A stretch of DNA of 64,000 nt from a bacterium. GTDB taxonomy: Bacteria; Patescibacteriota; Microgenomatia; Daviesbacterales; UBA10151. Shown piece by piece: positions 8,301 through 59,538 of the stretch. A model generated the notes under the pieces. It had not been told where the DNA came from. It was given only the letters and a program-made list of their open reading frames with translations, and made no database searches. Each line of letters starts with the position of its first letter. The stretch's first letter is position 1. Location: the NCBI GenBank assembly GCA_021786315.1, contig JAJYNN010000002.1, positions 204,402 to 268,401 of the forward strand, read 5' to 3'. The translations under genes were made by a program, and so were the position numbers.

Positions 8301-11300
8301 CCGTTGTAATATTTCCGTTGCTTGTATTGAAGATTGGCAGATATAGGCCATAGGCGGTAGCAATGGTTCCGCTGGAAGTATTCTGAACTCTGATGTCTCC
8401 GCCTAAAGCGCCTGTGATTGTTCCGGCGTCATTGTTATTGGACTGAACTGCTATACCTGGTTGCCAGCTAATAGCTCCTGAAGAAGAATTATTGTTGGCA
8501 ATAAAAGTTCCCGGATAAATATTTTTGGCAGTAGTGGTAGTTAAATTAGCCAAATAACCGTAAGTGACAGCACTGGGAGCAATGGTCAGGTTTAAATTTG
8601 AATAAGTATTGGAATCAATACTTGACCCTCCCAGGGCCAATTTTCCCGATAGACTTTGGTTACCAACTACATCTAAAGCTTGGGAAGGTGCAGTTGTCCC
8701 AATACCTACATTGCCGCTCATTACTGCTAGGCCAGCTTGAGTGGGCATAGTGGAGACCCCAATGCCTAAGTTGCCTTTGACGTACATATTTCCATTAGTA
8801 ATATCGATAGCGGCTCGATCATCAATTCCGGTATTTACAAACCTTAAATTATTGCCTGAGGTGTCTAAAGTAGCCCCAGCATTGCGGAAATCAAGCTGAG
8901 TTAGTTTAGCTGTGCCCATCACATCCAAGAGGGAAGCAGGGCTGGTGGTCCCAATACCTACATTGCCGGATCCGATACCGTTGGTAATAGAAAGGCCGGA
9001 ATTAAGGGTAAACTGCTTGCCGATATCCCAGCCTAAAATGGCATTAGGAGTTTCTGTACCTCTTTCAAAGATCAGGTTCATAGGCTCGGTGTCAGCAGAA
9101 ACGTTATCCGCATTGATAGTCCAGTCAGCTGAATCAGTTTGGCCTCCGACAACCGTACCGACAAGGGAGGTGGCGTTGACAGTATCCGCATAAATTGTGC
9201 CAAACTTGACGCCGGCGGAACCGATGTCTAGCGATCCGGTAGAGGCACTGATAGCACCTGTCACAGTGGTAGCGCCAAGTCTGGCAGTGCCGGCAACATC
9301 AAGTTTATAGGTGGGGGAGGTAGTTCCAATGCCTACATTACCGTTGTTGAAATAGCTGGAGCCGGAGGCGTTAATGTTGATAGTTTTATTGCCGGAAGAG
9401 TAAAGGCCTATCCATCCGGCATCGACGGCATCTACTCCAACATAACCCAGACGGCCAAGTTCGTAGGTGGAATTTCTCCAGCTGACCATGTCCTGGTTAT
9501 CTTTTTGGATGGTCAGTAGGTAGTCAGGACTGGTTGTCCCAATACCCACATTGCCGGCAAGGTAGGAGTTGGAGGCGGAGGAGGAGTAGAGGGCATATTT
9601 GGTAGCCCCGACATCAATGGAATTATCCATATAGATACCGTATGAGGTATTGACTGTGCCGGAATTACTCCAGCCGGAAAGGTCTAAGCCTCTGAGGGTG
9701 GTGATGGTGGAGGCTCCGGAATTGCTAACATTTCCATATAAAGCAGAAGCAGTAGTCCAAGTTCCGCCACTGGAGTTGATCAGGTAACCTTCGACACCAT
9801 AACCGGTTGAGGTGGTGCCGGAATTAATAATGCTACCGTAGGCACCAGCACCGGTAGTAAGTGTTGCTCCGGTGACATTGGAAATTAGGCCAAAGGTTCC
9901 GAAACCGTTGGTGAAAGTGCCGGTGCTTTGGTTGTAGAGAGCTCCGGTAGCGCCGTAAGTATAGGTGATAGTACCGGAGGAAGTGTTATAGACACGGCTG
10001 TCCGATCCCATCATTGTTCTTTGGGTATTGGTGCCAGTAAAGTCCGATTCAAAGTAGCCGCCTTTGGCTGCGGGGTAGGGGCTGCCATTGTAGCCGCTGG
10101 TGACAGTGACTTTACCGTAGATGTTGTAGAGATTGGCAACTGACGGATTGGTATAGGTGGATTCTACATGCAAAGGAGCGATAGGGGAGGTTGTCCCAAT
10201 ACCTACATTTCCTCCTTCTTCAATGGTCATAGAAAATCTGGCAGGACCTCCATTGGGATAGGTCAAAAAGCTGGTTTTTGCCGGGCTTGGTTGGGTGTAG
10301 ATTGCAAATTCTTTTGTACCATCAACAGCATTAACCAGTGCCGTTGCATGGGTGCTTTGGTTATCAAAAAGGATATTTAAATCACCGTCAGGGTTGGTGT
10401 TATTAAATCTAGCTAAGTAGGTGCTACCTGAAACGTTTTTGGAGACATCGAGAGTGTAGGCTGGAGAAGTTGTCCCGATACCCAGATTGCCGGAGGAGTT
10501 GATGGTGATGCCGTTGCCGGCGGTGCCATTGGTGGTGAGGGCAATGGTATTGGCGCTTAAGCGGTAAAGTCCGGAGTCTGGGTCGTTAGTGAAGGTTAGG
10601 GCTGGGGAGGCAGCGGTACCGTCAGGCAGGTTTAAGACACTGCTGACCATTAAGGTAGCGTAGCCTGCAGTGGCTCCAGTGATGTTATTAATATAAGCAT
10701 TCTTCCAGTAGTGGTCGCCGTCGCCTAAAGATTCTACCCCGTTAGCCTCAGGGATGAGGTCGTTTGATAACCTGCCGACTATTTTGACATAGTCATCCCC
10801 GGATTCACCTAAGGTGGTTTGTCCAAGGACTTTTAAGTTACCCCCATTATCAACAGAAAACCTGTGGAGATACAGGCCGTAGTAGGGGTTCGTTGTTGTT
10901 CCGATGGTAGGTTTTACCGGCGGCGCCAATCCGGAGTTGGAAGGATAAACATTGCCGTAGGAGTCGATGATGGTTTTGCCGATAAAATCAACATAGGCGA
11001 TACCTTGGGGAAGGGAAGTGGAGATTTCGGTTAAGTTGGCATTAACGTTATCAATCTTTCTATCGGACTGCTTAATTTGTTGGGCCAGCTCTTTCCTGTT
11101 GGCGATAGTTTTGTCGTCAACCTCGATAATGGCGGTCTCATCCAGGTTAAACCTTTGATCATCCGAATTTTTATGAAATCCCAGGTCTTTGGCCTTGGCC
11201 GGGGCAAAGTTGGTAATAATGCTTTGGGCCAGGTTGTCAAACGGTTGAAGCAGGGAGGCAATAAACGATGGCTTGGAAGTGGAAGCTCCTAGCACTTGTT

Positions 11301-12240
11301 GGTTTTGTCTGATAGCAGCCACTGCTGACATGCTGATTTTCTGATCCTGCTGATTCTTTGATTCTCCGATCTTCTGGCTTTCTGAAGCTTGCCCGAAGAT
11401 CTGTTTGGTGCCTTGGGGGTTGACTGAATATCCGGTAACCAGAAAGGCGGTAATTAGCAGGGTAATGACGGCTAACCCGGCAACGAAGAATCCAGCTTTC
11501 CTGATGTAGTTTGGAATGGTTTGTGATATTTGATAAGTGCCGATAGTGATAATTTCGGGCTCGGAAGAAGAGACTGGAGAGCTGAGCAAGGCGTCACCTT
11601 GCCTGACGTCAAGGTGACGCCTTGCTTCTTCCTCGGGCTTGTTTGAGCTCGTGAATGTTGCCAGATCAACCTCCTTATATACCCTTTCACCGTCCTGGTT
11701 GCGGGAAGCAACGAGCTTACCGGCCTGGTCCCAGCGCCTTAAGGTTTTAGTGGAAACCCCTAAGTTTTTGGCGGCTGCGGAGATAGAGAGGACTTTGTCT
11801 AGGGCAACGGTATGGTTAGTGCTTTTAGAGCCGAATTTGAAAGCTTCCAGGGCTTCTTTGGAATAGAGTCTGGTTCCACCCGGAGTTCTGGTTGGGGTGA
11901 TCTTGCCGGTTTTCTCCCAGCGGCGGAGGGTATCAATGGAAATCTTGAGGTATTTGGCAGCCTCGCCGATGTGCATCAGAGTATCGGAGGATCGATGTGT
12001 CGGTGTATCGGAATTTCGGTGGGTCAGAGTATCAGTGTTTTGGTGTTTTGGTGTTTCGGAAGATTGGGTTTTGATCCAAGAGGGGGTAGAGTCGGAAATC
12101 CAGGGGTCTTGCGGGGCCTCCATGGTTTTGACTTTCTTGGTGGCGGCTTTCTTAGAAGCTTGTTTTTTTGTTGCGGAAACCAGGGGTTTAAAGACCAAAG
12201 AAGTGCTATTTTTTTTGGCAGTTGCAGACGGTTTTTTCAT
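2365..12240 (-). CDS. Giant 3291-aa membrane-anchored fibre/adhesin-like protein: two cytoplasmic MerR/excisionase-type HTH (HTH_17-like) motifs, one TM helix, about 20 'GNVGIGTTxPxxxLxV' beta-helix/tail-fibre-like repeats, C-terminal globular domain plus SAQLAST heptad coiled coil.
   Basis: Uninterrupted ORF in the six-frame track. HTH-like segments: IGEAAKYLKISIDTLRRWEKTGKI and ISAAAKNLGVSTKTLRRWDQAGKL. Hydrophobic segment: FFVAGLAVITLLITAFLVTGY. The repeat motif recurs about 20 times; the C-terminus has the coiled coil QLASTSAQLASNSAQLASTSAQL. Confidence 0.85.
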   Translation of the reverse strand: MKKPSATAKKNSTSLVFKPLVSATKKQASKKAATKKVKTMEAPQDPWISDSTPSWIKTQSSETPKHQNTDTLTHRNSDTPTHRSSDTLMHIGEAAKYLKISIDTLRRWEKTGKITPTRTPGGTRLYSKEALEAFKFGSKSTNHTVALDKVLSISAAAKNLGVSTKTLRRWDQAGKLVASRNQDGERVYKEVDLATFTSSNKPEEEARRHLDVRQGDALLSSPVSSSEPEIITIGTYQISQTIPNYIRKAGFFVAGLAVITLLITAFLVTGYSVNPQGTKQIFGQASESQKIGESKNQQDQKISMSAVAAIRQNQQVLGASTSKPSFIASLLQPFDNLAQSIITNFAPAKAKDLGFHKNSDDQRFNLDETAIIEVDDKTIANRKELAQQIKQSDRKIDNVNANLTEISTSLPQGIAYVDFIGKTIIDSYGNVYPSNSGLAPPVKPTIGTTTNPYYGLYLHRFSVDNGGNLKVLGQTTLGESGDDYVKIVGRLSNDLIPEANGVESLGDGDHYWKNAYINNITGATAGYATLMVSSVLNLPDGTAASPALTFTNDPDSGLYRLSANTIALTTNGTAGNGITINSSGNLGIGTTSPAYTLDVSKNVSGSTYLARFNNTNPDGDLNILFDNQSTHATALVNAVDGTKEFAIYTQPSPAKTSFLTYPNGGPARFSMTIEEGGNVGIGTTSPIAPLHVESTYTNPSVANLYNIYGKVTVTSGYNGSPYPAAKGGYFESDFTGTNTQRTMMGSDSRVYNTSSGTITYTYGATGALYNQSTGTFTNGFGTFGLISNVTGATLTTGAGAYGSIINSGTTSTGYGVEGYLINSSGGTWTTASALYGNVSNSGASTITTLRGLDLSGWSNSGTVNTSYGIYMDNSIDVGATKYALYSSSASNSYLAGNVGIGTTSPDYLLTIQKDNQDMVSWRNSTYELGRLGYVGVDAVDAGWIGLYSSGNKTININASGSSYFNNGNVGIGTTSPTYKLDVAGTARLGATTVTGAISASTGSLDIGSAGVKFGTIYADTVNATSLVGTVVGGQTDSADWTINADNVSADTEPMNLIFERGTETPNAILGWDIGKQFTLNSGLSITNGIGSGNVGIGTTSPASLLDVMGTAKLTQLDFRNAGATLDTSGNNLRFVNTGIDDRAAIDITNGNMYVKGNLGIGVSTMPTQAGLAVMSGNVGIGTTAPSQALDVVGNQSLSGKLALGGSSIDSNTYSNLNLTIAPSAVTYGYLANLTTTTAKNIYPGTFIANNNSSSGAISWQPGIAVQSNNNDAGTITGALGGDIRVQNTSSGTIATAYGLYLPIFNTSNGNITTAYGIWSKIRSGSSASGTISSASLYYGTGEVGNASGTIGTLYGLNLSGWSNSGTVNTSYGIYMDNSIDVGATKYALYSSSASNSYFAGNIGVGTTSPSQLLNVYSPNQGAIASIETAQANEYAELYLVSNGDMWSISHESNNNRLGIYEGSDERLSIKDGGNVGIGTTNPGVKLEVASSLGTLTSPSSVTNFRVRNDGSTSNNAGISIVSGNAASSYLLMGDNENDDIGFIEYNNTNNWMAFTTNGSEKLRINSAGNVGIGTTSPSTLLDVNGTSTFRGASTYNGNLTLNYSGTAVVGSPSTAYNSYALNLSSNEWNSATGNETKTAVIQMRPRTVNVNPTVATLSFDVGSATNILNLQDNGNVGIGTTAPATLFDINSKFNVLSSGNVGINKVTPGGTAASAKLHIVGDNVTNNAVLIAQQGVGTTYTNYRNGLLVGMGGDTNNHDVAIWSDGSSLGFIQSVQLSNSFKPLALNPNGGTVGVGYANPGTTAALAVNGNLGIGTTAPNYLLSVSNGATDYFTVDSTSATYNVPTSFTSSGDVSMAYDLNFTNPTASNIKSQAPLSITAGETFNSSDLSLNTYNAGSVNITQNNQPTASGTAYALQVLPNLTSSTNSLTYTAQYGTYSVPTVNLSGTSGTVTSLYNNYQGLTASAGTVTNWYGYYVAAPTGAGTVTNKYAFVSESGTGNVGIGTTAPEDLLSIVQPSAAYLSEIVRIANNNGSGSEELRLGVDTTGLFSFIQSTHQGTGQTPLILNGAGGNVGIGTTNPAYKFSVVAGTNANVYIGQDTINRGLLFFTDAANNEQYADLRAYDFTFKTNNLNRMFISQSGNVGIGTTSPQYLLDIGSGGAGYEVHINDDLKVEDLSQAGRMYTPGSLIIGDATTYQGATQPTYGALIQGNVGIGTTSPQSSLQVYGSTEGKGITVGGISTWADADILRMYSDGDTTSYIKRVEDSGDANGGYGLIRFETNANNAAYNGLGGFNFGKTSGPDYLRITNMGNVGIGTTNPVSLTNIFGNSSSNTSLLYLDQNSTGDAAMNFRIVGTTGWRMGIDNSDSDKFKISSSTLSDDFGTDYLTITTSGNIGIGTTNPSQLLHLNNGNLYVNGGTIGLSTTPDSAKQLYVDHTYSNTSGTEYGIFSNTRADFGGTAATTSVFGTHGQVILGANQLADSTSGDVAGGLFQVTHLGQATQGAAKALEAVVRVGYPGAGNAANILTNGYGLYVQSPNVDSAHSSSLVNAYGLFLEAQKATGVSTGYGIYQAGASDISYFAGNVGIGTTAPGNFSGLSFTGPILDVNGPIQTRTGTLNIGGSTYRKAAISTPTADAADPYLSFYVVPSGSSSTANEDMRIDKTGNIYLANINSSLGSATLFAGNAGNVGIGTTSPVQKLEVNGDFRLWRDGLNNMGLQVGFNNTNNITNMSFRDRTDTNYQDVFMEGKSWTFRYNGNSTAGLSIASTGAVSMNLRTTANTYALCHATNGPAMEEITDCNGSATDLAENYGTTDSSIEAGDLVIATGQAKVVADPHEGKPTSKAYMAKSSQPYQSNILGIISTNPNQLYGDDIFDPSENPRPVSLAGRVSLKVSTENGPIQTGDYITSSSISGVGMKATRPGQVVGKALQDYSGTGIGKILVLVNVTFADPSDILANLTLDTDGSLIVPKLKAGTLEIDGPATVNGSLQVADSSLNSSDLTSSGTPAAASSATPNYIEVASTLKTFDNQLATQSAQLASVTAQADVLSAQVASTSAQIASTSAQLASNSAQLASTSAQLAKVQSDVDSLKLTPPDTLLATTSAQLVDLKVTSDATISGKLEAYDTEIQNSFKSFGETTLGNTTIAGDLTQDGTLSITSGNTINSLGTLYLQSSPLADTVDFFNGQVTIDKTGRIVATEVVAKTVTTEKLNIANPVSGAEHIGTATIPAGATEIPVNTTATTANSKVFLTATSSTGGQALIVSYQEAGLGFIVSLDHTYASDIKFNWWIVDSSQ
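3000..3125. repeat. Tandem 21-nt repeat (about 5-6 units; ggccagttgggcggaggtgga-like) encoding the SAQLAST heptad coiled coil of the giant protein.
   Basis: Read directly on the plus strand: gccagttgggcggaggtggaagccagttgggcggagttggaagccaactgggcagaagtggaggcaatttgggcggaagttgaagc. Confidence 0.8.
8020..8200. repeat. Intragenic near-identical duplication, copy 1 of 2 (about 160-180 nt; encodes LSGWSNSGTVNTSYGIYMDNSIDVGATKYALYSSSASNSY.AGN.G.GTTSP).
   Basis: The same long nucleotide string (…ggaggcggaggaggagtagagggcatatttggtagccccgacatcaatggaatt.tccat.tagataccgta.gaggtattgactgtgccgga…) recurs at 9535-9700. Confidence 0.8.
9535..9700. repeat. Intragenic near-identical duplication, copy 2 of 2.
   Basis: See copy 1; protein segments ...LSGWSNSGTVNTSYGIYMDNSIDVGATKYALYSSSASNSY... 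occur twice in the giant ORF. Confidence 0.8.
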
Positions 12241-12442: not shown

Positions 12443-12478
12443 AAGGCCACTCCCTCGCCGGATGGCAGGGGTGGCCTT
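12443..12478. repeat. Type-2 palindromic hairpin (aaggccac-N-gtggcctt), with covarying arms relative to the other copies.
   Basis: aaggccactccctcgccggatggcaggggtggcctt; the inner part cctcgccggatggcagg is shared with the 33207 copy. Confidence 0.6.
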
Positions 12479-12489
12479 ATGAAATTCTC

Positions 12490-12526
12490 AAGGTGACGCC
12501 TGCCTTGCGGACGAGGCGTCACCTTT
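12490..12526. repeat. Type-1 palindromic element (caaggtgacgcc...ggcgtcacctt).
   Basis: aaggtgacgcctgccttgcggacgaggcgtcacctt. Confidence 0.8.
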
Positions 12527-12887
12527 TAAGGGCTTAACGGCCTTTGATTCTGAGCGAGTAAAGATAAAGCTTCTAAAAGTTGGCAATGGGAAAGGTGGTA
12601 AAAAAAGGGATAAAAAAGTCCTAAGGCAGGAGTATCCGTCTGCTGCTACTCCTACCCTAGGACCAACTAACTGTTCTTAGTGTAAAGAAAAGTGAAAACC
12701 ATGTCAAGAGGTCGTTCTGTATCAAACTCCCTCAAAACTTTTACCGCATGACCATAAATAGCCTCAAAGTTACCCAAAGCTAACAAAGTCACTTGATCAT
12801 AATATATTTACACTATATCAAAATAGGTAAACTCTGAACCCATTTGATCTTGTGAAAACATGTAGTGAAAACTATCTATCCTTGCAA

Positions 12888-13115
12888 AAGGGCACTCCTT
12901 GGCGCAAGTTAAGGGGTGCCCTTGAGAATTGGAAAGCTAAGAATTTGTTTTGCGTCTTTTTTAGAAAAAGACGCCCAAAAATCGCCCACGGGAACGGTCC
13001 CTAAATTCTACGGCTTGCTGGTCGGGGGAAAGCTGCCCCCTCGATCACGGCTTTGCCGGATCGGCATCCCCCTGACAGCTTCGCCTAGAATTCTTAACGG
13101 GCTTACGTTCCAAGT
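12888..13115 (+). ncRNA. Candidate structured RNA/MITE element, copy A: 5' palindromic hairpin, 'gagaattggaaagctaag', stem-loops with covariation, 3' motif ttaacgggcttacgttcca.
   Basis: About 150 nt are virtually identical to copy B (22676-22980). Motifs are conserved, with compensatory stem changes, relative to copies C (33207-33438) and D (29191-29428). Confidence 0.4.
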
Positions 13116-15748: not shown

Positions 15749-15784
15749 AAGGTGACGCCTTGATGTACATCAAGGCGTCACCTT
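15749..15784. repeat. Type-1 palindromic element (perfect 36-nt palindrome).
   Basis: aaggtgacgccttgatgtacatcaaggcgtcacctt, flanked by ttata...gagaac. Confidence 0.85.
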
Positions 15785-16268: not shown

Positions 16269-16283
16269 AAGGTGACGCCTTGA
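16269..16283. repeat. Solo half-unit of the type-1 element (ttataaGGTGACGCCTTGAgaac), a single arm with no partner.
   Basis: Its flanks (ttataa...gagaac) are the same as those of the full hairpin at 15749; it sits just 5' of comEA. Confidence 0.7.
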
Positions 16284-16903: not shown

Positions 16904-17037
16904 GAATAATTCTCAATTTACAATTTTCAGTTTTCAAATAATTTTCAAAATCTAAATTTCCAAACAGCTTGAAAATTCGGTCATTGAAAATTCATTCTAA
17001 ATTGGTACTTGGTAATTAAAAATTTTATACTAGATAT

Positions 17038-18042
17038 GTGGCTAAGCTTTTAGGGGTAGGTGCTGCTCTTTGGCTGGTTGTTTTTGCCTTCAGGGTAATC
17101 TTGATGGGTGGGATTGATCCCACTTATCGTGATCAGGAGGTAAAAATGCTTTCACCTCTCCGCCAGCAATTGGAGGAAGTGATTGATAAAACGCTTCCTT
17201 ACCCTCAATCAGCCCTTTTGTCCGGAATCCTTTTGGGAAGCCAAAACAATCTTCCTTTTAAGCTCAAAAATGACCTGAAAACTACCTCAACTATCCATAT
17301 GGTGGTCGTTTCCGGCCAGAATTTATCCATGGTGGCGGGGTTTGTGATGAGCCTGGTTTATTTTCTGGGCAGGCGGAAAACGATTGTTTTAACCCTATTG
17401 GCGGTAGCTTTTTATAGCCTATTAACCGGTTTCCAGGTTCCGGTGATCCGGGCGGGGATTATGGTCTTTTTGGCTTACCTGGCCCAGCTTTTAGGCAGGG
17501 AACGTCAGGGCCCTTGGGTATTGTTCCTGACGGCGGGTTTGATGCTCCTTTATAACCCCAACTGGCTGCTTTCTATTTCCTTTCAGCTGTCGTTTTTGGC
17601 CACTTTTGGGGTAATCGTGGTGGCGCCGGTGATTGCCAGTAGGCTGAAAAAGGTGCCAAAAGTTTTACGGGAGGATTTAGGGGTTACATTGTCGGCCCAG
17701 TTTTTGGTTTTGCCGGTAATTGCCTATAACTTCGGACAGATATCCTTGATTGGTATATTAGTTAACAGTTTGATACTGTGGAGTATACCTCTGGTGATGA
17801 TCTTTGGGTTCATTGGTTTGGGGTTGGGGATGGTCAATACATTCTTGGGGCAGGTGGCGGGACTGGTTCCGGGGATACTTTTGACCTACTTTATCGATAT
17901 GGTCCAATTTTTTGCCAAAATTCCGGGATCAAGCCTTGTAATAGGGGAAACAGGAATAATTTTATGGTTGGGCTATTATTTAATAATTGGAGCTTTAATT
18001 TGGATTCTCAGAGTGAAGGGAGATGGAGCTCAAGAATTTTAA
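17038..18042 (+). CDS. comEC: ComEC/Rec2-family membrane channel domain only; it lacks the metallo-beta-lactamase domain, as is typical of CPR.
   Basis: Polytopic membrane protein with the ComEC 'competence' domain signature (TIHMVVVSGQNLSMV, resembling HLLAISGLH). Confidence 0.65.
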   Translation: MAKLLGVGAALWLVVFAFRVILMGGIDPTYRDQEVKMLSPLRQQLEEVIDKTLPYPQSALLSGILLGSQNNLPFKLKNDLKTTSTIHMVVVSGQNLSMVAGFVMSLVYFLGRRKTIVLTLLAVAFYSLLTGFQVPVIRAGIMVFLAYLAQLLGRERQGPWVLFLTAGLMLLYNPNWLLSISFQLSFLATFGVIVVAPVIASRLKKVPKVLREDLGVTLSAQFLVLPVIAYNFGQISLIGILVNSLILWSIPLVMIFGFIGLGLGMVNTFLGQVAGLVPGILLTYFIDMVQFFAKIPGSSLVIGETGIILWLGYYLIIGALIWILRVKGDGAQEF

Positions 18043-18157
18043 ATTTACAATTTTAAGTTTTTAAATAATTTTCAATGATAAAATTTTTAAATTTAAGACA
18101 TTCTAATTCGATTTAAAATTTGAGCTTTAGAATTTAAAATTATGGTATGATTATTCT

Positions 18158-21960: not shown

Positions 21961-22668
21961 ATGGCTGTCCCCAGACACTTTAAAAAGATCTTCGCGATCC
22001 GTTTTCTGGGATATTTCTTAATGCAGGTGGGGCTGTTAACGGTAGTCTTAATCGCTGAGCCGGTGGTGGCGGAAGAAGCCAAATACCGGTTCGACCAGGT
22101 TACCGGAAAGCACTATTCTTTACCCACAGTCATTACCTCCACAGGTCAAACAGCACCCGATAGCAACTCTGACCAGGGAAAATCCTCCTTCGGAAGCTTG
22201 GTTGGTAGGGGTTCGGAAACTATTGTCCCTGTTTCCACGGATTTTGGCATCGTCATTGAGAAAATTAATGCCAATGCCAGGGTAATTGCCAATGTTGATC
22301 CCTCTAATGAAGCAGAGTACACCCAGGCTCTGGGCCAAGGTGTAGCCCATGCTAAAGGTACAGTTTTTCCCGGACAAAAAGGGAATATCTATCTTTTTTC
22401 CCATTCCACAGATGCCCCCTGGAACATTGTCCGCTTTAACGCCATCTTTTATCTTTTGCGGGAGCTTGATCCGGGGGATAGGATAATTATGTTTTACCAG
22501 GGTCGAAGATACGACTATATTGTCTTTGATAAGACCATTGTGAAACCCGAGGATACGGAGTTTTTGACTAACAGTTACGATGAGTCAGTGCTGACACTCC
22601 AGACTTGTGATCCGCCGGGAACACTCTCCAACAGATTAATTGTCCGAGCTAAATTAGTAGGAAACTGA
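21961..22668 (+). CDS. Sortase-family transpeptidase (membrane anchored).
   Basis: Catalytic motifs LFSHS (His) and LTLQTCDP (TLxTC Cys). Confidence 0.75.
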   Translation: MAVPRHFKKIFAIRFLGYFLMQVGLLTVVLIAEPVVAEEAKYRFDQVTGKHYSLPTVITSTGQTAPDSNSDQGKSSFGSLVGRGSETIVPVSTDFGIVIEKINANARVIANVDPSNEAEYTQALGQGVAHAKGTVFPGQKGNIYLFSHSTDAPWNIVRFNAIFYLLRELDPGDRIIMFYQGRRYDYIVFDKTIVKPEDTEFLTNSYDESVLTLQTCDPPGTLSNRLIVRAKLVGN

Positions 22669-22675
22669 TCTTAAA

Positions 22676-22980
22676 AGGGCACTCCTTGGCGTAAGGCAAG
22701 GGGTTACCCCTTCGGTTTGAGCCCTCAGGGTCGAAGACTTATGAATTGGAAAGGTATGGTTTTTCTTTTGCGTCTTTTTTAAGAACTTGCTCTCAAGTTC
22801 GCAAGACCTTGCGACAGCAAGCTGTCTTAAAAAAAGACGCCCAAAAATCGCCCACGGGAACGGTCCCTAAATTCTACGGCTTGCTGGTCGGGGGAAAGCT
22901 GCCCCCTCGATCACGGCTTTGCCGGATCGGCATCCCCCTGACAGCTTCGCCTAGAATTCTTAACGGGCTTGCGTTCCAGT
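22676..22980 (+). ncRNA. Candidate structured RNA/MITE element, copy B. It is identical to A over about 150 nt but carries an extra about 50-nt hairpin inserted in its first stem-loop.
   Basis: ...aagacgcccaaaaatcgcccacgggaacggtccctaaattctacggcttgctggtcgggggaaagctgccccctcgatcacggctttgccggatcggcatccccctgacagcttcgcctagaattcttaacgggcttgcgttcca. Confidence 0.4.
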
Positions 22981-23007
22981 GGGCTAGGGAAAAAGAGGAC
23001 GGAAAAC

Positions 23008-24291: not shown

Positions 24292-25500
24292 TCAACAGCT
24301 TTCTAACACTTTGAGGGTTTCTCTGGCAGCTTTTTCCCAGGAGAATTTCTTGATTTGGGAAAATCCCTTATTGGAAAGTTCTTTTCGCAGCTTCGGATCG
24401 CTTGTCAGTTTACTGATTCCTTTGCTAATTTCCTCTTCCTGGTAAGGGTTGACGATGATGGCGGCGTTTCCGGCCACTTCCGGACAGCTGGAAGTATTGG
24501 AAGTTAAGACCGGGCAGCCGCAAGCCATGGCTTCCAGGATTGGCAAGCCAAAACCTTCAAACAGGGATGGGTAAAGGAAAGCTAAAGCCCCGGAATACAA
24601 AGCCGGAAGTTCCTCATCTGGAACATATCCTAAAAATTTAACCTGTTTTTCAATGCCTAATTCTTGGGGTAGGGAGTAAATCTCATCTGCCAGCCAGCCT
24701 TTGGAACCAGCCAAAACAAGCTGGAGTTTCTTATAAGGTGACGCCTTGACGTACGTTAAGGCGTCACCTTGAAAACCGGTCGCCCCTTGCTTTATAAATT
24801 TGGCATATGCTTTAATTAACTGTTCCAGGTTTTTTCTGGGTTGGATAGTTCCTACAAACAGGAAATAATTTTGATCTTCTAAGTTATATTTCTTTAGCGT
24901 TTGTCCTAATTGACTGCCCCTTACCGGTTTAAAAAGTTTTTCATTGTAACCCTCGTAAACAACAGTAATTTTATCTGCCGGTATCCCTACCTTATTAATT
25001 AAATCTTCTCTGGTGGACTTGGAAACGGCAATGATATGGGTAGCAGACTTCAATTGCCGGTGAGTCATAAAGTTTAAGTAAAGCCTTTGTTTTAATTGAT
25101 GGGTTCGAGGTAAATATTCCGCTCCCAAATCGTGGACTGTGACCACAGTTTTTAGGCCGGGTTTACGGAAAAGGGGGAGCGTGTGGGCGGGGATGAAAAG
25201 GACATCCAGATCTTTCTCTAAAAATGTTCTTTTCGCCAAGCCATACTGGGTCCAGAGCCTGTGCAAAGGTATGAGATCAGCCTCAAAATTAGCGGCTTCC
25301 GCTATCCCGGACCCGATCCGGGATCTAAATTCCTGGATCCCTGCTTTCGCAGGGACGATCCCGGAAAACGGACTTAAATAAACTTTATATTGATTCCGGT
25401 GGTCAATTTTAGCCAGATGAGAGAGTATCTGGTAGGAATAATTCTCTGTCCCTGTCCTTTTGCCTATAAAAGATCGGGATGCATCGTAGCCAATGATCAT
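24292..25500 (-). CDS. Family 1/4 glycosyltransferase carrying an in-frame palindromic-element insertion.
   Basis: C-terminal GT-B motif FEGFGLPILEAMACGCPV; the hairpin element encodes GFQGDALTYVKASPYK. Confidence 0.8.
   Translation of the reverse strand: MIIGYDASRSFIGKRTGTENYSYQILSHLAKIDHRNQYKVYLSPFSGIVPAKAGIQEFRSRIGSGIAEAANFEADLIPLHRLWTQYGLAKRTFLEKDLDVLFIPAHTLPLFRKPGLKTVVTVHDLGAEYLPRTHQLKQRLYLNFMTHRQLKSATHIIAVSKSTREDLINKVGIPADKITVVYEGYNEKLFKPVRGSQLGQTLKKYNLEDQNYFLFVGTIQPRKNLEQLIKAYAKFIKQGATGFQGDALTYVKASPYKKLQLVLAGSKGWLADEIYSLPQELGIEKQVKFLGYVPDEELPALYSGALAFLYPSLFEGFGLPILEAMACGCPVLTSNTSSCPEVAGNAAIIVNPYQEEEISKGISKLTSDPKLRKELSNKGFSQIKKFSWEKAARETLKVLESC
24735..24770. repeat. Type-1 palindromic element inserted in frame inside the GT4 gene.
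   Basis: aaggtgacgccttgacgtacgttaaggcgtcacctt lies within ORF 24292-25500, and the reading frame is maintained. Confidence 0.85.
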
Positions 25501-25612
25501 AATAATTTCTAATTTTTAATTTACAATTTTTAAATAATATCTAAATGATTAAATGTTTTAAAATCGGAACATTGATAATTTATTTAAAATTTAAAATTTA
25601 TAATTGAAAATT

Positions 25613-26632
25613 TTATCTCTTGCTTACGCTCCTTTTATACAAGTCCAGGTTTTCCAGGGCCATGCCTGTTCCATAGGCCACGCACATCAAGGGGTTCTCG
25701 GCAACATGGCAGGGAACACCGGTGGCCTCGGTCATGAGTTTATCCAGGTTGTTCAGTTGGGAGGTGCCTCCGGAAAAAACAATACCTTTATCGATAATAT
25801 CTGAAGCTAGCTCCGGGGGAGTCTGTTCGAGAACGTTTTTGACCGCAGCCACAATTTTTTGCACTGTTGGTTCAATCATCTCATGGACTTCAGCGGTGGT
25901 AAGCTCAATAGTCCGGGGAAGTCCGGTGATGGCGTCCCGGCCCCGGACAGGCAGGGTTTTATTCTCGCTGGATTTAGGGTTAGTTGCTGAAGCGATCCTG
26001 ATCTTAACCTCTTCGGCCTGGTTTTCCCCGATTATCAGTCCGTATTTCTTTCTGACAGCAGTCTGGATAGCCTCGTCAACCTTATTGCCGCCAACTCTGG
26101 CTGAGTTGTGGACGACCACACCTCCCAGACAGATCACCGCCGCCTCGGTGGTGCCCCCGCCGATATCCACGATCATGTTTCCGGAAGGGTTGGCAATTGG
26201 AATCCGGGCGCCGATGGCTGCAGCCAATGGTTCATCAATCAGATAGGCGGTTTTGGCGCCGGCAGAGAGGGTAGCGTCAAGCACGGCCCGGCGTTCCACC
26301 GAGGTCACTCCGGCAGGGACACAAATCATCACCTCCGGCTTAAAAAGGTGGGAGTGGCCGCAAACCTTATCGATAAAATAACGGAGCATGGCTTCAGTGA
26401 TGACGTAATCGGCGATAACCCCTTCGCGGAGCGGCCGGGAGGCGGTGATATTACCCGGAGTGCGTCCCAGCATCTCTTTAGCTTCGTTTCCGACAGCCAA
26501 TACCCGGTTATCATCAGTGGAAACAGCCACCACAGTCGGCTCATTTAAGACAATTCCTTCGCCGCCCAAATAAACCAGGGAGTTGGCAGTGCCTAAGTCA
26601 ATGCCGATGCGTTTGCCTAAATTAAACATCAT
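25613..26632 (-). CDS. mreB: Actin-like MreB/Mbl paralog 1.
   Basis: IGIDLGTANSLVY...; sugar-kinase/actin fold motifs throughout. Confidence 0.85.
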   Translation of the reverse strand: MMFNLGKRIGIDLGTANSLVYLGGEGIVLNEPTVVAVSTDDNRVLAVGNEAKEMLGRTPGNITASRPLREGVIADYVITEAMLRYFIDKVCGHSHLFKPEVMICVPAGVTSVERRAVLDATLSAGAKTAYLIDEPLAAAIGARIPIANPSGNMIVDIGGGTTEAAVICLGGVVVHNSARVGGNKVDEAIQTAVRKKYGLIIGENQAEEVKIRIASATNPKSSENKTLPVRGRDAITGLPRTIELTTAEVHEMIEPTVQKIVAAVKNVLEQTPPELASDIIDKGIVFSGGTSQLNNLDKLMTEATGVPCHVAENPLMCVAYGTGMALENLDLYKRSVSKR

Positions 26633-26741: not shown

Positions 26742-26778
26742 AAGGTGACGCCTTGCCTTACGACAAGGCGTCACCTTG
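26742..26778. repeat. Type-1 palindromic element.
   Basis: aaggtgacgccttgccttacgacaaggcgtcacctt. Confidence 0.85.
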
Positions 26779-26803: not shown

Positions 26804-27550
26804 ATGGAAGCTACATTAAGATCTGTAAACATTTTTGGAGTCCGGGTAGACAAAGTGAATATGGAGGAATCTGTGGGTATAGTGGAAGGTTGGTTAGAAG
26901 GAAAAGAAAAACACTATATTGTAACCCCGAATCCCGAATTTATAATGGCTGCACAAAAGGACGAGGAGTTTAAAAAGGTTCTAAATAATGCCGACTTAGC
27001 AGTTCCTGACGGAGTGGGGTTAAAACTGGCAAGTGATATAGAAAGCAATACTCCCGGAGTTTATCTTTTGGAGGGGCTTTGTAGGGAGGTTTCAAAAAAG
27101 GGCTTTACAGTAGGCTTTTTGGGTGGCAGGAATGGGGTAGCAAAGAAAGCCGCCGAGTGCTTACAGAAAAAGTATCCCGGACTAAAAGTGAGTATTGCCG
27201 ATGATGGCGGGAATATTGATTCCGACGGTGAATCGCTCGGGGTCTTGCCACCTAGCGATTTTCCAAAAACCGACATACTATTTGTCGCGTATGGCCAAAT
27301 TAAGCAGGAAAAATGGATTTATAGGAATTTGGAAAAGATTCCGGTTAAAGTAGCCATGGGAGTTGGGGGATCATTTGATGAGATTTCCGGTCGGGTGTTG
27401 CGGGTTCCCCGTTGGGTGCACAACTTGGGCTTAAAATGGTTGGTCAGGCTCATCCTTCAGCCTTGGAGAATCAAAAGACAGCTAGCGCTTATTAAATTTA
27501 TATGGATGGTGATAAGCGCTAAATTTTCAATGATCAATAACCAATTTTAA
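26804..27550 (+). CDS. WecB/TagA/CpsF-family (GT26) glycosyltransferase.
   Basis: VNIFGVRVD...YIVTPNPEF...DLAVPDGVG is a typical GT26 N-terminus. Confidence 0.75.
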   Translation: MEATLRSVNIFGVRVDKVNMEESVGIVEGWLEGKEKHYIVTPNPEFIMAAQKDEEFKKVLNNADLAVPDGVGLKLASDIESNTPGVYLLEGLCREVSKKGFTVGFLGGRNGVAKKAAECLQKKYPGLKVSIADDGGNIDSDGESLGVLPPSDFPKTDILFVAYGQIKQEKWIYRNLEKIPVKVAMGVGGSFDEISGRVLRVPRWVHNLGLKWLVRLILQPWRIKRQLALIKFIWMVISAKFSMINNQF

Positions 27551-27658
27551 AATAAACCTCAATGATTAATGTTCAAAATTTAAACATTCAGAAATTAGAA
27601 ATTCATTGAGACTTGAAAATTGTAAATTGAAAATTTAATTTGTGCTACACTGGAAAAG

Positions 27659-29190: not shown

Positions 29191-29428
29191 AAGGTGACCT
29201 CCTTGACGTTAGGCAAGGGGTCACCTTAAGAATTGAAAAGCTAATGTTTTTTTGCAACTTTGGTGGCAAAGTTGCGCAAAGCCACTTGCAGTGAAAGTCG
29301 ACCTAAAACCTTCATCAGTTGTCTAGCGGGAACTTTACCCTTCGGAAATTCGGCTACTTCGTAGCGTCAGTTTCCGCTTTCCCTGCTGCCAACTGACTTG
29401 GTTTTTTAACGGTCTTTGTTTCAATGCA
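29191..29428 (+). ncRNA. Candidate structured RNA/MITE element, copy D (the most divergent).
   Basis: aaggtgacctccttgacgttaggcaaggggtcacctt + aagaattgaaaagctaat + ttgcaactttggtggcaaagttgcgcaa ... ctagcgggaactttaccc ... ttttttaacggtctttgtttcaatgc. Confidence 0.35.
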
Positions 29429-29467
29429 AGGGAAGATGAAACGGATAAACAATTGGAAGAAAATATC

Positions 29468-29759: not shown

Positions 29760-29799
29760 TATATCACAACTCGTCAGATAGTGTCAATACTTTAACACA

Positions 29800-29830
29800 A
29801 AAAAGACCCCGTTTCCGGGGTCCTTTTTGA
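29800..29830. terminator. Rho-independent (bidirectional) terminator downstream of rplL.
   Basis: aaaaagaccccgtttccggggtcctttttg: a GC stem flanked by A and T tracts. Confidence 0.8.
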
Positions 29831-33202: not shown

Positions 33203-33206
33203 AAAA

Positions 33207-33438
33207 AGGTGACTGCCTCGCCGGATGGCAGGCGTCACCTTAAGAACTGGAAAGCTAAGGTTATGTTCACGCTTTTGGCCGCAAAAGCGTGGGAAAACTC
33301 TGCTCGCAGAAAGTCGCCCTAAACCTCGTCATTTTCTAGTCGGGGGCTCACCCCCTCGGAAATTCACTGGTTGAGAGTTCAGTTTCCGGTTCCCCCTGAC
33401 AGAAAACTCCTCGGTTTTTAACGGGCTTGCGTTCCAGT
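33207..33438 (+). ncRNA. Candidate structured RNA/MITE element, copy C.
   Basis: aaggtgactgcctcgccggatggcaggcgtcacctt + aagaactggaaagctaag + cacgcttttggccgcaaaagcgtg ... ctagtcgggggctcaccccctcgg ... ccccctgacag ... ttaacgggcttgcgttccagt. Confidence 0.4.
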
Positions 33439-33501
33439 CAAAGAAAAATAGTATTTGGTTTCAAAGCGAGCAAAATAGAATTAAAAGGAGTATTAGAAAA
33501 A

Positions 33502-36822: not shown

Positions 36823-39216
36823 TTACTGGGTTGTTTGGCTGGGGGAAAGGACTGAAAAGAGGTTAGCGGAAGTCATATTACTGGCCTCGACTCCGGTGGT
36901 GGGGCTGACTTTTTGGTAGCCGATGACTGTTTTGGATACCTGCCCGGCAATCCCTAAGTCCCTATTCCCGTCAACCGTGGTTTCAATAATCCCCTCAGGC
37001 TGTTTGAAAGCTATATCCGGTTTGCCCCGAAGTAAATTATCCATTAGATCCCGCCAAATGGGGGTGGCTCCGGTAATTCCGGAAGATAGAGTCGGATCCA
37101 TTGGGGAATAATCGTTATTTCCCACCCAGGCGCCAACGACATATTCCGGGGTATAGCCGAAAGCCCAGTTGTCCCGTTTATCATCTGAAGTTCCGGTCTT
37201 GACAGCGACGGTGTGATCGGGAATATAAAGCTGGGAATTGGCCCCAAAAGCCGGAGTCCGGGCCCGGTTGTCAGATAAGACATTATTTAAAAGGTAGGCC
37301 ACCTCTTCGGTTAAAACTCTTTGTCCGGGATCATTTCGGTGGTCCTCTAAAACATTGCCTGAAGAATCGGTAACTGTCAGAATTGCCTGAGGTGCAAAGT
37401 GGACGCCACCGGAAGCCAAAGTCCCGTACACTCCCATCATCTCGATCATCCGGACAGCTTCACCCCCTAAAGTCAGAGACAATCCATACTCGGAAGTCCG
37501 GTTAAAGGTTGTAATACCCATATCTTTGGCTGTCTGGACCATAGCCGGAATGCCTACAATTGCCAGGGTCCGGACGGCGGGGATATTGTAGGAAGATCCA
37601 AGGGAAGTTCTGATGGGAACTGCGCCGTGGTACCTGCCGTCGTAATTTACCGGGGAATATCCTTGTCCCCAAGGGTTGGTGTAGGTCACGGGGGCATCCA
37701 GGATTACATTTCCCGGGGTCATGCCCTGTTTAAAGGCGGTGGCGTAAGTTACAACTTTGATGGAAGAGCCGGGTTGGCGTAGGGCTAAGGCGACGTTGTA
37801 GTTTCCGCCGGAAGGATCAAAGTAGTTTTTGGAGCCTACCATGGCTAAAATCCTGCCGGTTCTGGCATCGGTGATCATTGCTGCCCCGTTTCCGACTTTT
37901 AAGTCTTTCAGTTTATCAACTTCGGTGGCGACAACATTTTCCGCCATTTCCTGTAAATCAAGATCCAGGGTGGTGACAACCTTCAACCCCCCCTGGGAAA
38001 CGACTTTTTCCCCGTATCTTTGGGCCAGAAGATCCCGGACATACATTACAAAATGGGGGGCTTTGATATTGGTGACCGGGGGCTGGAAGGCAAGCTGGTC
38101 AGAGGATGCCTTGTCTGCATCTTTTTGGGAAATATACCCATCCTCAACCATTCTTCTTAAAACTTCCTGCTGCCTTTCCCGGCCCTTTTCGGGGTGGGTT
38201 CCGTAAGGGGAGTATTCACTGGGGGCAGCGGGTAAACCTGCCAGGTAAGCGCTTTCGGCCAAGCTTAAGTCTTTGGCGTCTTTGCCAAAATACATCTTGG
38301 CGGCAGCCTGCACTCCCCAGGCTGGGCCGCCGTAAGGTGAACTGTTTAAGTACATTTCCAGGATCTGGTCCTTGGAGTAGATCCGTTCTGCCCAAAAAGC
38401 TAAAATGGCTTCCTTAATCTTGCGGGCAAAAGTTTTATCGGGGGTTAAAAGGGAATTTTTAGCCAGTTGCTGGGTTAAGGTCGATCCCCCCTGTAAAGGA
38501 TCAGCTTGATCGGAAACCAATACGCCTTGGGAAGATAAATTATGTTGGAGGGCCCGGGCGACTCCGGCGGGATCAATCCCGGGGTGGGTATAAAAATGCT
38601 TGTCCTCGATGGCAATTGTGGCTTGGATTAAATAAGGGGGAAGGTCGGAAAGTTTTACCGGCTGGCGGTTTCGGCCTTCATAAAGTTGGTACAAGACCCG
38701 GCCCTTGCGGTCTAAAATTGTGGTGGTGGAAGCGGTATTGGCAGTGATTAAAGATTCCGGGGAGGGGAGCTGGCTGGCAATTTTGGCCACACAAACTGAG
38801 TAAAAAATCAGGAGGAGAAAAACGCTCAAAGCAGCAATTCTTAAGCGGGAACGTTTAGGGATAATTTTATCAAAATTTTTCCTGGCCTTTCGCAGATAAA
38901 ATTCCTTAAAAGGTGTGGTCCGGGGACGGCCTCTTCCTTTTTTAAAACCTATTTTTCTCAAGGGCACCCCGTGCCTTGCGACAAGAAGTGCCCTTGCAAG
39001 AGGTCCAACGATGCCTCTTAACAATTGAATTGTCTTGATAAAAAGGAGAAGAGCTAGTAATCCAATGACCTGAAAAGGGATAAGGGGGGAAAATTTGAGC
39101 CACAAGCCCCCTCTTGTCGGATTTCTTTTTCTTTTGCTGGTAGAAGGTTGTGTTTTGCTCATTAACACCAGCTGGAGGGCAGTCCAAGGGGATTTTCCCT
39201 GCTCTCCTAACCTCAT
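36823..39216 (-). CDS. Class A penicillin-binding protein (glycosyltransferase plus transpeptidase), copy 1. The N-terminus may be over-called: a palindromic element is encoded at its 5' end.
   Basis: GT51 motifs (EDKHFYTHPGID, GGSTLTQQL) and TP motifs (SSIK, KTGT). TM LRIAALSVFLLLIFYSVCVA. Confidence 0.8.
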   Translation of the reverse strand: MRLGEQGKSPWTALQLVLMSKTQPSTSKRKRNPTRGGLWLKFSPLIPFQVIGLLALLLFIKTIQLLRGIVGPLARALLVARHGVPLRKIGFKKGRGRPRTTPFKEFYLRKARKNFDKIIPKRSRLRIAALSVFLLLIFYSVCVAKIASQLPSPESLITANTASTTTILDRKGRVLYQLYEGRNRQPVKLSDLPPYLIQATIAIEDKHFYTHPGIDPAGVARALQHNLSSQGVLVSDQADPLQGGSTLTQQLAKNSLLTPDKTFARKIKEAILAFWAERIYSKDQILEMYLNSSPYGGPAWGVQAAAKMYFGKDAKDLSLAESAYLAGLPAAPSEYSPYGTHPEKGRERQQEVLRRMVEDGYISQKDADKASSDQLAFQPPVTNIKAPHFVMYVRDLLAQRYGEKVVSQGGLKVVTTLDLDLQEMAENVVATEVDKLKDLKVGNGAAMITDARTGRILAMVGSKNYFDPSGGNYNVALALRQPGSSIKVVTYATAFKQGMTPGNVILDAPVTYTNPWGQGYSPVNYDGRYHGAVPIRTSLGSSYNIPAVRTLAIVGIPAMVQTAKDMGITTFNRTSEYGLSLTLGGEAVRMIEMMGVYGTLASGGVHFAPQAILTVTDSSGNVLEDHRNDPGQRVLTEEVAYLLNNVLSDNRARTPAFGANSQLYIPDHTVAVKTGTSDDKRDNWAFGYTPEYVVGAWVGNNDYSPMDPTLSSGITGATPIWRDLMDNLLRGKPDIAFKQPEGIIETTVDGNRDLGIAGQVSKTVIGYQKVSPTTGVEASNMTSANLFSVLSPSQTTQ
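38957..38998. repeat. Variant palindromic element (caagggcaccccgtgccttg...gtgcccttg) at the 5' end of the PBP ORF (in frame or 5'-UTR).
   Basis: ctcaagggcaccccgtgccttgcgacaagaagtgcccttgcaag. Confidence 0.6.
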
Positions 39217-51163: not shown

Positions 51164-52823
<1,660 letters not shown>

Positions 52824-55400: not shown

Positions 55401-56255
55401 ATTCTTAATAGGAAAATCAGGGTAACCCCGAAGAAAATCTGCTAACTTTGCAGGGTTTTTGCCTTCCATTTGGACCAATTCACCCGGGAAAAATTTTACA
55501 ATTTTTCCATTCCATTTGGTCCAGGCATTGGGCCAGGGATAATAGGCCCGGATCATCCGGTCCAATTTTTCCGGAGTTGGGGGATTCCCAATATCGAAAT
55601 ACCCGTCCTCTTTATTAATAATTTTTGTAAAAGTTGCCTCTTCTTCATTTTGGGGTTTTAAATCCACTTTCCCTGCAATAAACTGGGGAATAATATCAAC
55701 CAAAAGGGGAATTGTTTCCTGAGTCATTTTTGTGTTCAAAGATTCAAAAGTATCTGTATTTGATAAGCTAATCTCCTTTGTTGCAAGGACTGGACCGTGA
55801 TCTAGTTTGATATCCATTTGCATGATGGAGGTACCGGAGGTTTTATCACCGTTTAAAATGGCTGCCTGGATGGGAGAAGCCCCGCGGTACTTAGGTAAAA
55901 GTGAATAATGGATATTTATAACTCCAAATTTAGGAATATCTAAAACATTTTGGGGAATAATTTTCCCATAAGCCGCCACAATAAATAAATCAGCATTGAG
56001 CTTTTTTAGCTCCAGAGCAGCCTCATTGTCCAGTCTCTCAGGCTTGTGCAAGGTGACGCCTTGCGCCGCAAGGGGACGCCTTGCGTTCGTGGCGACGGCG
56101 GAGGGAGTTAATATTTGTTTACGGCCAATCTTTTGGTCGGGTCCCGTAACTATCCCAACAACCTGAAAATTTTCCTCCAAAGCTTCTAAAATGGGAACCA
56201 CGAAGGCTGGAGTTCCAAAAAACACGATTTTGATAGACTTATCCATAATTTTCAA
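55392..56255 (-). CDS. fmt: Methionyl-tRNA formyltransferase containing a direct repeat of the palindrome unit in frame.
   Basis: IVFFGTP ... NIHYSLLPKYRGASPIQ. The segment ATNARRPLAAQGVTLHKP is encoded by caaggtgacgccttgcgccgcaaggggacgccttg. Confidence 0.85.
   Translation of the reverse strand: MKIMDKSIKIVFFGTPAFVVPILEALEENFQVVGIVTGPDQKIGRKQILTPSAVATNARRPLAAQGVTLHKPERLDNEAALELKKLNADLFIVAAYGKIIPQNVLDIPKFGVINIHYSLLPKYRGASPIQAAILNGDKTSGTSIMQMDIKLDHGPVLATKEISLSNTDTFESLNTKMTQETIPLLVDIIPQFIAGKVDLKPQNEEEATFTKIINKEDGYFDIGNPPTPEKLDRMIRAYYPWPNAWTKWNGKIVKFFPGELVQMEGKNPAKLADFLRGYPDFPIKNLN
56049..56083. repeat. Two direct copies of the 15-nt unit CAAGG(T/G)GACGCCTTG inside fmt.
   Basis: caaggtgacgccttg cgccg caaggggacgccttg. 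Confidence 0.7.
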
Positions 56256-57294: not shown

Positions 57295-57323
57295 GTTTTT
57301 TCAAGGTGTCACCTTATGAATTG

Positions 57324-59502: not shown

Positions 59503-59538
59503 AAGGTGACGCCTTGACGTACGTTAAGGCGTCACCTT
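59503..59538. repeat. Type-1 palindromic element.
   Basis: aaggtgacgccttgacgtacgttaaggcgtcacctt, identical to the intragenic GT4 copy. Confidence 0.85.

Follow-up and report, generated by a model that had tools for sequence, protein, structure and literature searches.

A probable in-frame insertion of a short stem-loop repeat in a GT4 glycosyltransferase gene of a Daviesbacteria genome

Here, we describe a short palindromic repeat that lies in frame within a glycosyltransferase gene of a bacterium of the Daviesbacterales (Patescibacteriota; Microgenomatia), and the dispersed repeat family, denoted family A, to which it belongs. The stretch analysed, called the window below, comprises 64,000 nucleotides of contig JAJYNN010000002.1 (GenBank assembly GCA_021786315.1, positions 204,402 to 268,401 of the forward strand); all coordinates refer to the window, and the features central to the argument are the following.

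24292..25500, minus strand: gene for an intact GT4 (GT-B) glycosyltransferase of 402 aa, with the EX7E motif (E315..E323) kept
24735..24770, in the GT4 gene: near-perfect family A palindrome of 36 nt, with one G:T position on the plus strand
24733..24780, minus strand: segment of 48 nt (palindrome with family-type flanks) that codes for the additional residues T241-Y256 (TGFQGDALTYVKASPY), delimited approximately by ortholog alignment and the shared flank motif
59503..59538, between the starts of the Wzy_C/TPR gene (minus) and mreB2 (plus): intergenic copy identical to the GT4 copy

The GT4 open reading frame (ORF) is uninterrupted, with Pfam matches extending on both sides of the insert (Glyco_transf_4, residues 17-186; Glycos_transf_1, residues 204-379), and the palindrome spans codons Q244-Y256 with the frame intact, as the first-pass annotation of the window had claimed for ORF 24292-25500. 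Both glutamates of the EX7E motif, E315 and E323, are invariant in the ortholog alignment, so that the enzyme carrying the insert is probably functional. The 36-mer, AAGGTGACGCCTTGACGTACGTTAAGGCGTCACCTT, is matched on the same strand at 36 of 36 positions by the intergenic copy at 59503-59538, an identity already recorded in the annotation and one for which the chance expectation is zero (dinucleotide-preserving shuffles yielded no match). The palindrome had also been described as perfect, which slightly overstates the case: 17 of its 18 pairs are Watson-Crick, and G at position 14 faces T at position 23, an odd pair that is G:T when read on the plus strand and C:A when read on the coding (minus) strand. 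Folded as single-stranded DNA (ssDNA), the 52-nt unit containing the GT4 palindrome reaches −16.3 kcal/mol (z = −6.4). By direct reading of the sequence, two of the three frames of the 36-mer contain TGA or TAA on either strand, and the third yields GDALTYVKASP in both orientations. Thus, any surviving intragenic copy must use the GDALTYVKASP frame, as the GT4 copy does.

In a large protein database, the closest matches of the GT4 enzyme are glycosyltransferases of Candidatus Daviesbacteria and other Microgenomates (55-70% identity), in line with the initial impression of a genome of the candidate phyla radiation (CPR) type. The gene order WecG, MreB, GT4, PEGA-domain protein, sortase is kept in four other Daviesbacteria loci, and the GT4 proteins concerned are thus true orthologs. 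As a measure of loop length, we took the number of residues from the invariant motif PRKN to xGW, which is 41 for the window protein, 19-29 in distant GT4 relatives, and 20, 21, 28, 31 and 35 in the five measurable proteins among the six most similar orthologs, the sixth of which (P0058) was missed by the pattern and is short in the alignment. The short loop that had been ascribed to related GT-B enzymes at this place is therefore present both in distant GT4 proteins and in the closest orthologs. When T241-Y256 is removed, the remaining LEQLIKAYAKFIKQGA-KKLQLVLAG comprises 25 residues, the canonical loop length, and no peptide like GFQGDALTYVKASPYK occurs in any of 120 orthologs. Given the longer loop compared to relatives and the lack of a similar peptide in the orthologs, the insert, of about 16 codons, is by sequence comparison derived in the lineage of the window. 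The predicted gain of about 16 residues agrees with T241-Y256 in the ortholog alignment, which places the 48-nt insertion approximately. That alignment, which the first-pass annotation had proposed as a check of lineage specificity, supports the claim in that the closest orthologs lack the insert and none of the 120 has a similar peptide, and it does so coarsely, the nearest ortholog being about 70% identical.

The identical GT4 protein and a variant matching at 400 of 402 residues are present in NCBI and ENA assemblies. Two further loci (one on a 942,606-bp contig of GCA_027372145.1, the other on an ENA contig) share 99.98% identity with the window and likewise contain the insert; both represent one strain, reached via a 99.5% identical cluster member of the GT4 protein. 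Because the insert is kept in both further assemblies, it is reproducible.

An AlphaFold2 model based on 32 orthologs (mean pLDDT 84.8; pTM 0.84) has a fold matching those of the solved retaining GT4 transferases MshA, PimB', BshA and WaaG. The insert falls in the connection from helix 222-238 to strand 260-264, where the C-terminal Rossmann domain begins; its pLDDT values range from below 50 to 69, with residues 241-250 at 49. In a Rossmann domain, the connection from a helix to the next strand lies opposite the ligand-binding ends of the strands; from this rule we infer that the insert loop is far from the substrate cleft and the EX7E motif. The model thus bears out the suggestion of a surface loop, with the insert predicted as a low-confidence connection and probably representing a disordered surface loop added to the enzyme.

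The first-pass annotation knew of two copies of the palindrome; instead, the two are members of a family represented at least 12 times in the window. The family A stem, GGTGACGCC/GGCGTCACC, recurs through the window together with the variants GGGCACTCC, GGCCACTCCC and GGTGACCTCC, and a covariance model built from 11 copies retrieved 12 copies at 48 bits or more in the 64 kb, as well as a single degenerate copy that scored 30 bits (22666-22720) and some weaker remnants. In the 11-copy alignment, approximately TTCTTAWA precedes AAGG and TRAGAA follows CCTT, and the complete unit measures about 46-50 nt, namely, the 36-nt palindrome plus some 5-6 nt of conserved flank on each side. Stem pairing is kept in 92.9% of the cells, two-sided changes occur at 5 of the 14 pairs, and the pairing score exceeds those of all 500 shuffles and is well above that of slid controls. 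Nine of the 12 strong copies are intergenic; several copies are located just after stop codons and three in divergent promoter regions. Apart from the GT4 copy, its identical counterpart and the copies in other genes given further below, the following were listed.

12443..12525, intergenic: two adjacent family A stem-loops (units 12443-12478 and 12490-12525)
12888..12923: family A stem-loop at one end of a ~240-nt composite (12886-13115)
15749..15784, intergenic, downstream of leuS: copy with 3 differences from the 36-mer, each pair-preserving
16269..16281: solo half-copy, one arm with family flank
26742..26777, intergenic, between mreB and wecG: family A copy
57303..57315, just after the Wzy stop codon: collapsed mini-copy, AAGGTG-T-CACCTT

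The family appears to be confined to a narrow lineage. Three relatives (L022, L023 and L024) lack the copy at 26742-26777 in their orthologous wecG-mreB spacers; in related metagenome contigs totalling 558 kb, the covariance model found nothing that reached 26 bits, and no copy is present in a syntenic 21-kb locus (L106) of another Daviesbacteria genome. The exact stem pattern had 19 single matches in unrelated taxa among 185,579 species genomes (a set without the source genome) and was nowhere multi-copy, and the palindrome had no match in viral contigs. Rfam searches of the window, at gathering thresholds and at E<=1, reported tRNAs only. Family A is thus, on the sequences compared, a lineage-specific, species-level repeat family. 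The orientation of the copies, assigned by the flank motif, is 7:2, which is not significant and is partly ambiguous, the flanks being near-palindromic. GC skew is positive in every 4-kb block of the window regardless of gene orientation, so that the window falls on a single replichore, in which the plus strand is the leading one.

Arm-like sequences were also observed in the fmt gene (56050-56085, minus strand), where the family arm is present twice in direct orientation, as CAAGGTGACGCCTTGCG and CAAGGGGACGCCTTGCG, within the conserved formyltransferase N domain; an exact match to the 17-mer CAAGGGGACGCCTTGCG is found at the first variable site of a GT4 ortholog (L105) that belongs to another genome. 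Separately, another CPR contig (L040) contains an unrelated family of near-perfect palindromes, AGAGGTCTCTCCTCT..AGAGGAGAGACCTCT, with three copies in 11 kb (1468-1499, 1741-1777 and 6859-6892), and lineage-specific palindrome families may be common in the CPR group.

The GT4 insert is not the only coding palindrome in the window. Together with two in the GT4 gene, at least 6 such palindromes, from at least 3 repeat families, are found in about 44 genes, the others being in a giant ORF and the genes for penicillin-binding protein (PBP) 1, tRNA-guanine transglycosylase (TGT) and Wzy.

11585..11626, minus strand: family A variant with the two arms swapped, in frame in a 3291-aa ORF (EARRHLDVRQGDALL)
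25291..25365, minus strand: second in-frame hairpin insert of the GT4 gene (HVR1, ~S46-A70, 'SGIVPAKAGIQEFRSRIGSGIAEA', GIVPAKAGIQ..), from a different, widespread repeat family
38960..38995, minus strand: family A variant with a GGGCAC stem, in the variable N-terminal region of the PBP1 ORF ('GPLARALLVARHGVPLRK')
51789-51938, plus strand: insertion of 50 residues in TGT, with an RQDPE-type peptide
58701-58760, minus strand: palindromic insert in the Wzy_C/TPR membrane protein, VIPAKAGIQ-type DNA in another frame (SFLRKQGSKLAGSLVKPGMT)

In-frame family A peptides are present in GT4 (QGDALTYVKASP), in the giant ORF (..RQGDALL) and probably in PBP1. The copy at 11585-11626 is part of the linker that joins two MerR-type HTH domains to a membrane helix, and the length of this linker is quite different in a homolog. 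The giant ORF itself (2365-12240, minus strand) encodes 3291 aa with the two MerR-type HTH domains at the N-terminus, the membrane helix and at least 13 internal repeats that share a conserved core of ~30 nt, GGTTGTCCCGATACCCACATTGCC; similar giant proteins adjoin the GT4 gene in other Daviesbacteria loci. The N-terminal region of PBP1 with the copy at 38960-38995 is part of the class A PBP in the closest homologs and is highly variable; this copy is probably in frame as a family member and is a candidate insertion only. The TGT insertion corresponds to a clean 50-residue gap relative to solved TGTs, which are contiguous there, and its peptide belongs to the same family as one found in the GT4 loop of other Daviesbacteria. 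The HVR1 insert at 25291-25365 folds with z = −5.4, and its peptide family is found at other, three different sites in the orthologs P0034, P0061, P0043 and L038.

The same GT4 loop is remodelled across the orthologs. The GT4 alignment contains two hypervariable sites, and the loop at the palindrome site ranges from 20 to 79 residues in 107 orthologs, being 28 residues or shorter in only 25 and expanded in about three quarters. In the 14 orthologs with readable DNA, the extra loop DNA has a mean fold z of −4.24, versus −0.21 for same-length controls from the same genes (n = 42; Mann-Whitney p = 1.9e-7). In these orthologs, the inserts are nearly always palindromes different from family A and encode several peptide families (..RTSDG..RQDPE, VIARS..ARNDN, CHSERSEES..SAQNDK and VIPAKAGIQ..); the same family is seen at different sites from one ortholog to another, which favours insertion having occurred repeatedly and independently. 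The first-pass annotation had stated that the insertion would be called into question by palindrome-free orthologs with a segment of equivalent length. Many orthologs do have segments of equal or greater length; where the DNA could be read, these are themselves other palindromic inserts. A further observation on the variable sites is that the semi-conserved stretch 'QGxALQGWP', in the first variable site of many GT4 orthologs, is encoded by a small CAAGG..CCTTG palindrome (L106:10135-10163, L105 and L022), which may be the remnant of an older, clade-shared insertion.

Palindromic coding repeats are found in Methanocaldococcus jannaschii. Coding inverted repeats are also carried by mitochondrial genes of Nematomorpha (PMC6649704), which resemble the GT4 insert in being in frame within conserved genes and differ from it in that both arms encode conserved parts of the protein, as well as in genome and scale, and no homology is implied. 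The system to which the first-pass annotation likened the palindrome, the Rickettsia palindromic elements (RPEs), comprises RPE-1 to RPE-10, of about 100-150 bp and restricted to Rickettsia (Alphaproteobacteria) (Ogata et al. 2000 and 2002, summarised in PMC10969869). Like RPEs, of which many copies are in frame in unrelated housekeeping genes, family A consists of dispersed, multi-copy palindromic hairpins in a small genome (12 strong copies in 64 kb; fold z of −6.4), frequently inserted in frame with a family-typical peptide that is added at fold-compatible positions, and in neither case is a dedicated transposase known. By contrast, family A has a 36-nt palindrome within a unit of ~46-50 nt and occurs in one Daviesbacteria lineage rather than in Rickettsia; length and host set it apart from RPEs, a distinction drawn by description and without alignment to an RPE consensus, and a relationship in sequence is not to be expected. 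Furthermore, unlike with RPEs, several unrelated palindrome families co-occur in the window, and the apparent density of coding copies is higher. Thus, the likeness holds for behaviour, as seen in the identity to an intergenic copy, the closest orthologs without the insert, the low-confidence loop and the other in-frame copies, and does not extend to RPE membership, given the length of 36-50 bp, the Daviesbacteria lineage and the REP-type stem-loop.

Repetitive extragenic palindromic (REP) sequences are closer in anatomy. Intragenic REPs that add residues to proteins have been reported from eight phyla, with the CPR not among them (Di Nocera et al. 2013, PMC3733652), so that the phenomenon as such is not unique to the window. 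Family A shares with REPs the 20-40-bp imperfect palindrome that is richer in G+C than its surroundings, the high copy number, the mostly intergenic location, often just after stop codons, the G:T pairs in stems, the occasional copies wholly inside ORFs that add residues, and the species-specific families. In contrast to the GTAG- and CGTC-tagged REP super-families, which have an unpaired tetranucleotide at one end (PMC3733652), family A has no terminal GTAG or CGTC tag in the 11-copy alignment, CGTC being found only inside the stem, and no gene for a REP-associated tyrosine transposase (RAYT) or another tyrosine transposase of the IS200/IS605 type was identified among the window ORFs. Family A is, then, a REP-like stem-loop by anatomy with RPE-like behaviour. 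In-frame fusions are also made by MITEs (miniature transposable elements with inverted repeats), such as QMITE1 of Coxiella burnetii (PMC5896051; ERIC and BOX are reviewed in PMC10969869), which likewise are non-autonomous repeats that may lie inside genes and contribute coding sequence. However, MITEs are usually 100-400 bp long with terminal inverted repeats and target-site duplications, whereas the family A unit is a single hairpin, whose arms are inverted repeats by construction, and no target-site duplication is evident at any copy, there being no empty site for comparison. The searchable literature contained no report tying CPR bacteria to REPs, MITEs or coding palindromes, which is not proof of novelty, and a search of the literature on repeat-encoded peptides found nothing relevant.

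Two other classes were considered and rejected. A CRISPR or tandem array is ruled out by the irregular spacing of the family A copies, which are kilobases apart with only one adjacent pair. An intrinsic terminator or SPRITE type does not fit the copies in GT4 and at 59503, 15749 and 26742, which have no T-run on either strand; 4-7 T follow on the minus strand only at composite-linked copies. A simple promoter and terminator scan of the window performed at chance level and did not flag family A, and the one classical bidirectional terminator in the window (29798-29829) is quite unlike it.

The composites just mentioned are four paralogous, non-coding elements of ~240 nt.

12886-13115: composite
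22673-22985: composite
29191-29430: composite
33204-33440: composite

Read on the plus strand, each begins with a family A hairpin, followed by TAAGAATTGGAAAGCTAAG, then by another covarying hairpin and some 150 nt that contain conserved blocks; the conserved blocks and covarying helices are common to the composites, and two copies are 97% identical over 157 nt. The composites have no Rfam match and no small conserved ORF. A single remote homolog (L032:1192-1366) lies beside a GT4 ortholog on another Daviesbacteria contig, and an 18-mer of the composite had four matches in viral contigs, all in one unrelated phage sequence and attributable to chance. Where nhmmer extended the composite into PBP1 coding sequence, this was taken to be the alignment running on from the hairpin. 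The composites may be an unknown structured RNA or a non-autonomous mobile element, and may be the source of the solo hairpins.

Taken together, these observations make it likely, in our view highly so, that the GT4 segment represents a member, inserted in frame at a permissive loop, of a species-level repeat family of short, REP-like stem-loops. Under this scenario, family A would have multiplied in the Daviesbacteria genome and one copy would have landed in the GT4 gene, where it would survive because the ~48 nt added keep the frame, because the single open frame, GDALTYVKASP, is used, and because the site is the loop between the first helix and the second strand of the C-terminal Rossmann domain, away from the cleft, where disordered residues can be accommodated. 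Most likely, the insert is selfish or, as we infer, neutral, and the added peptide is, according to the model, most likely a floppy loop of ~16 residues on a still-functional enzyme. As for the spread of the family, the hairpin could be mobilised as ssDNA by an enzyme acting in trans, as with REP/RAYT and the ends of IS200/IS605 elements; by analogy, such single-strand transposition is the most likely route, a preference that we hold only tentatively. A conserved hairpin with compensatory changes and tolerance of G:T fits recognition as ssDNA or RNA. Alternatively, the copies could derive from the composite or spread by gene conversion between palindromes.

Several points weigh against this scenario. 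The peptide of the insert is a predicted translation of the ORF, and the nearest GT4 ortholog is only ~70% identical, so that 'lineage-specific' is to be taken coarsely. The two further assemblies contain no empty-site allele, and hence the insertion itself, with its precise limits and any duplication of the target site, is not seen directly. No transposase of any kind, RAYT included, is present among the ORFs of the 64-kb window. One of the two-sided changes in the stem is the whole-arm swap of the 11585 copy and may be a single event, and conserved stems with compensatory changes could also mean that the hairpins have a cellular function.

Were the hairpins functional host elements, involved in RNA stability or processing, in pausing or attenuation, or as operator sites, the GT4 copy would exert its effect at the mRNA or DNA level; it might, for instance, slow ribosomes close to the domain boundary. 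The compensatory stem changes, in which G:T rather than random mismatches are tolerated, speak for such a role, as do the location of about half of the intergenic copies directly 3′ of stop codons, the two copies upstream of the two mreB paralogs and the existence of two identical copies 35 kb apart. We nevertheless regard it as quite improbable: the contexts are mixed, with copies at 3′ ends, in coding loops and in divergent promoter regions; the GT4 copy is without a following T-run on both strands, and the terminator scan did not flag the family; on the strand of the GT4 mRNA, the wobble turns into a mismatched C:A; the same loop is filled by unrelated palindromes in orthologs; and the family is missing from the orthologous spacers and syntenic locus of relatives, indicating that no conserved function needs it.

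A different origin of the solo hairpins is that units of 36-50 nt are immobile by themselves and represent the end module of the ~240-nt composite, with solos generated via internal deletion, gene conversion or template switching and the GT4 copy having been copied from 59503 onto an existing loop. Insertion of 240 nt followed by in-frame deletion to 48 nt is, however, less parsimonious than insertion of a small unit, and solos are more numerous than composites; moreover, the GT4 loop without the insert has the canonical ~25 aa, leaving no prior segment to convert. We therefore consider this origin unlikely, even though the solos have 5-8 nt of flank in common with the hairpin module of the composite, half and collapsed copies exist, and the GT4 and 59503 copies are identical, whereas others differ by at least 3 nt. 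Finally, the hypervariable loop length across orthologs could be taken to mean that there was no insertion at all, and that an old variable loop resembles the repeat by chance or reflects an assembly artefact. This explanation is close to refuted by the 36/36 identity to another locus against a zero chance expectation, by the agreement of three assemblies, by the match of the flank motif to the family and by the similar peptide being found in 0/120 orthologs.

Beyond the insertion of a REP-like unit, a broader reading, which we consider doubtful, is that the palindromes are the mobile end-hairpin of a previously undescribed ~240-nt non-coding element, that this element represents a new non-autonomous mobile element of the single-strand type or an RNA gene family in the CPR, and that solo hairpins, together with several other palindrome families, time and again reshape the same permissive loops in core enzymes throughout Microgenomates, and do so more densely than the RPEs of Rickettsia. 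What is notable in the window is the density and recurrence of coding palindromes in a CPR lineage rather than the single insert. Coding palindromes were once presented as a peculiarity of Rickettsia and later as sporadic cases of REPs; in the window, the same process is seen in a candidate-phylum bacterium whose genome measures ~1 Mb, where it is apparently far denser and where the affected genes encode textbook enzymes such as TGT, the GT4 transferase and a PBP. If general, this process would help explain odd insertions and length variation of CPR proteins, would matter for annotation and structure prediction, and would provide a natural catalogue of permissive loops. It also raises the question of what mobilises such hairpins in genomes seemingly devoid of the usual transposases.

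Another repeat type in the window consists of AT-rich intergenic repeats with TTGAAAATTGTAAATTGAAAATT-like units, which lie upstream of many genes on both strands and may be promoter or UP-like regions. Examples are as follows.

16905-17025: AT-rich TTGAAAATTGTAAATTGAAAATT-like repeats
18032-18145: AT-rich TTGAAAATTGTAAATTGAAAATT-like repeats
25501-25625: AT-rich TTGAAAATTGTAAATTGAAAATT-like repeats
27519-27641: AT-rich TTGAAAATTGTAAATTGAAAATT-like repeats
56243-56356: AT-rich TTGAAAATTGTAAATTGAAAATT-like repeats
63905-64000: AT-rich TTGAAAATTGTAAATTGAAAATT-like repeats

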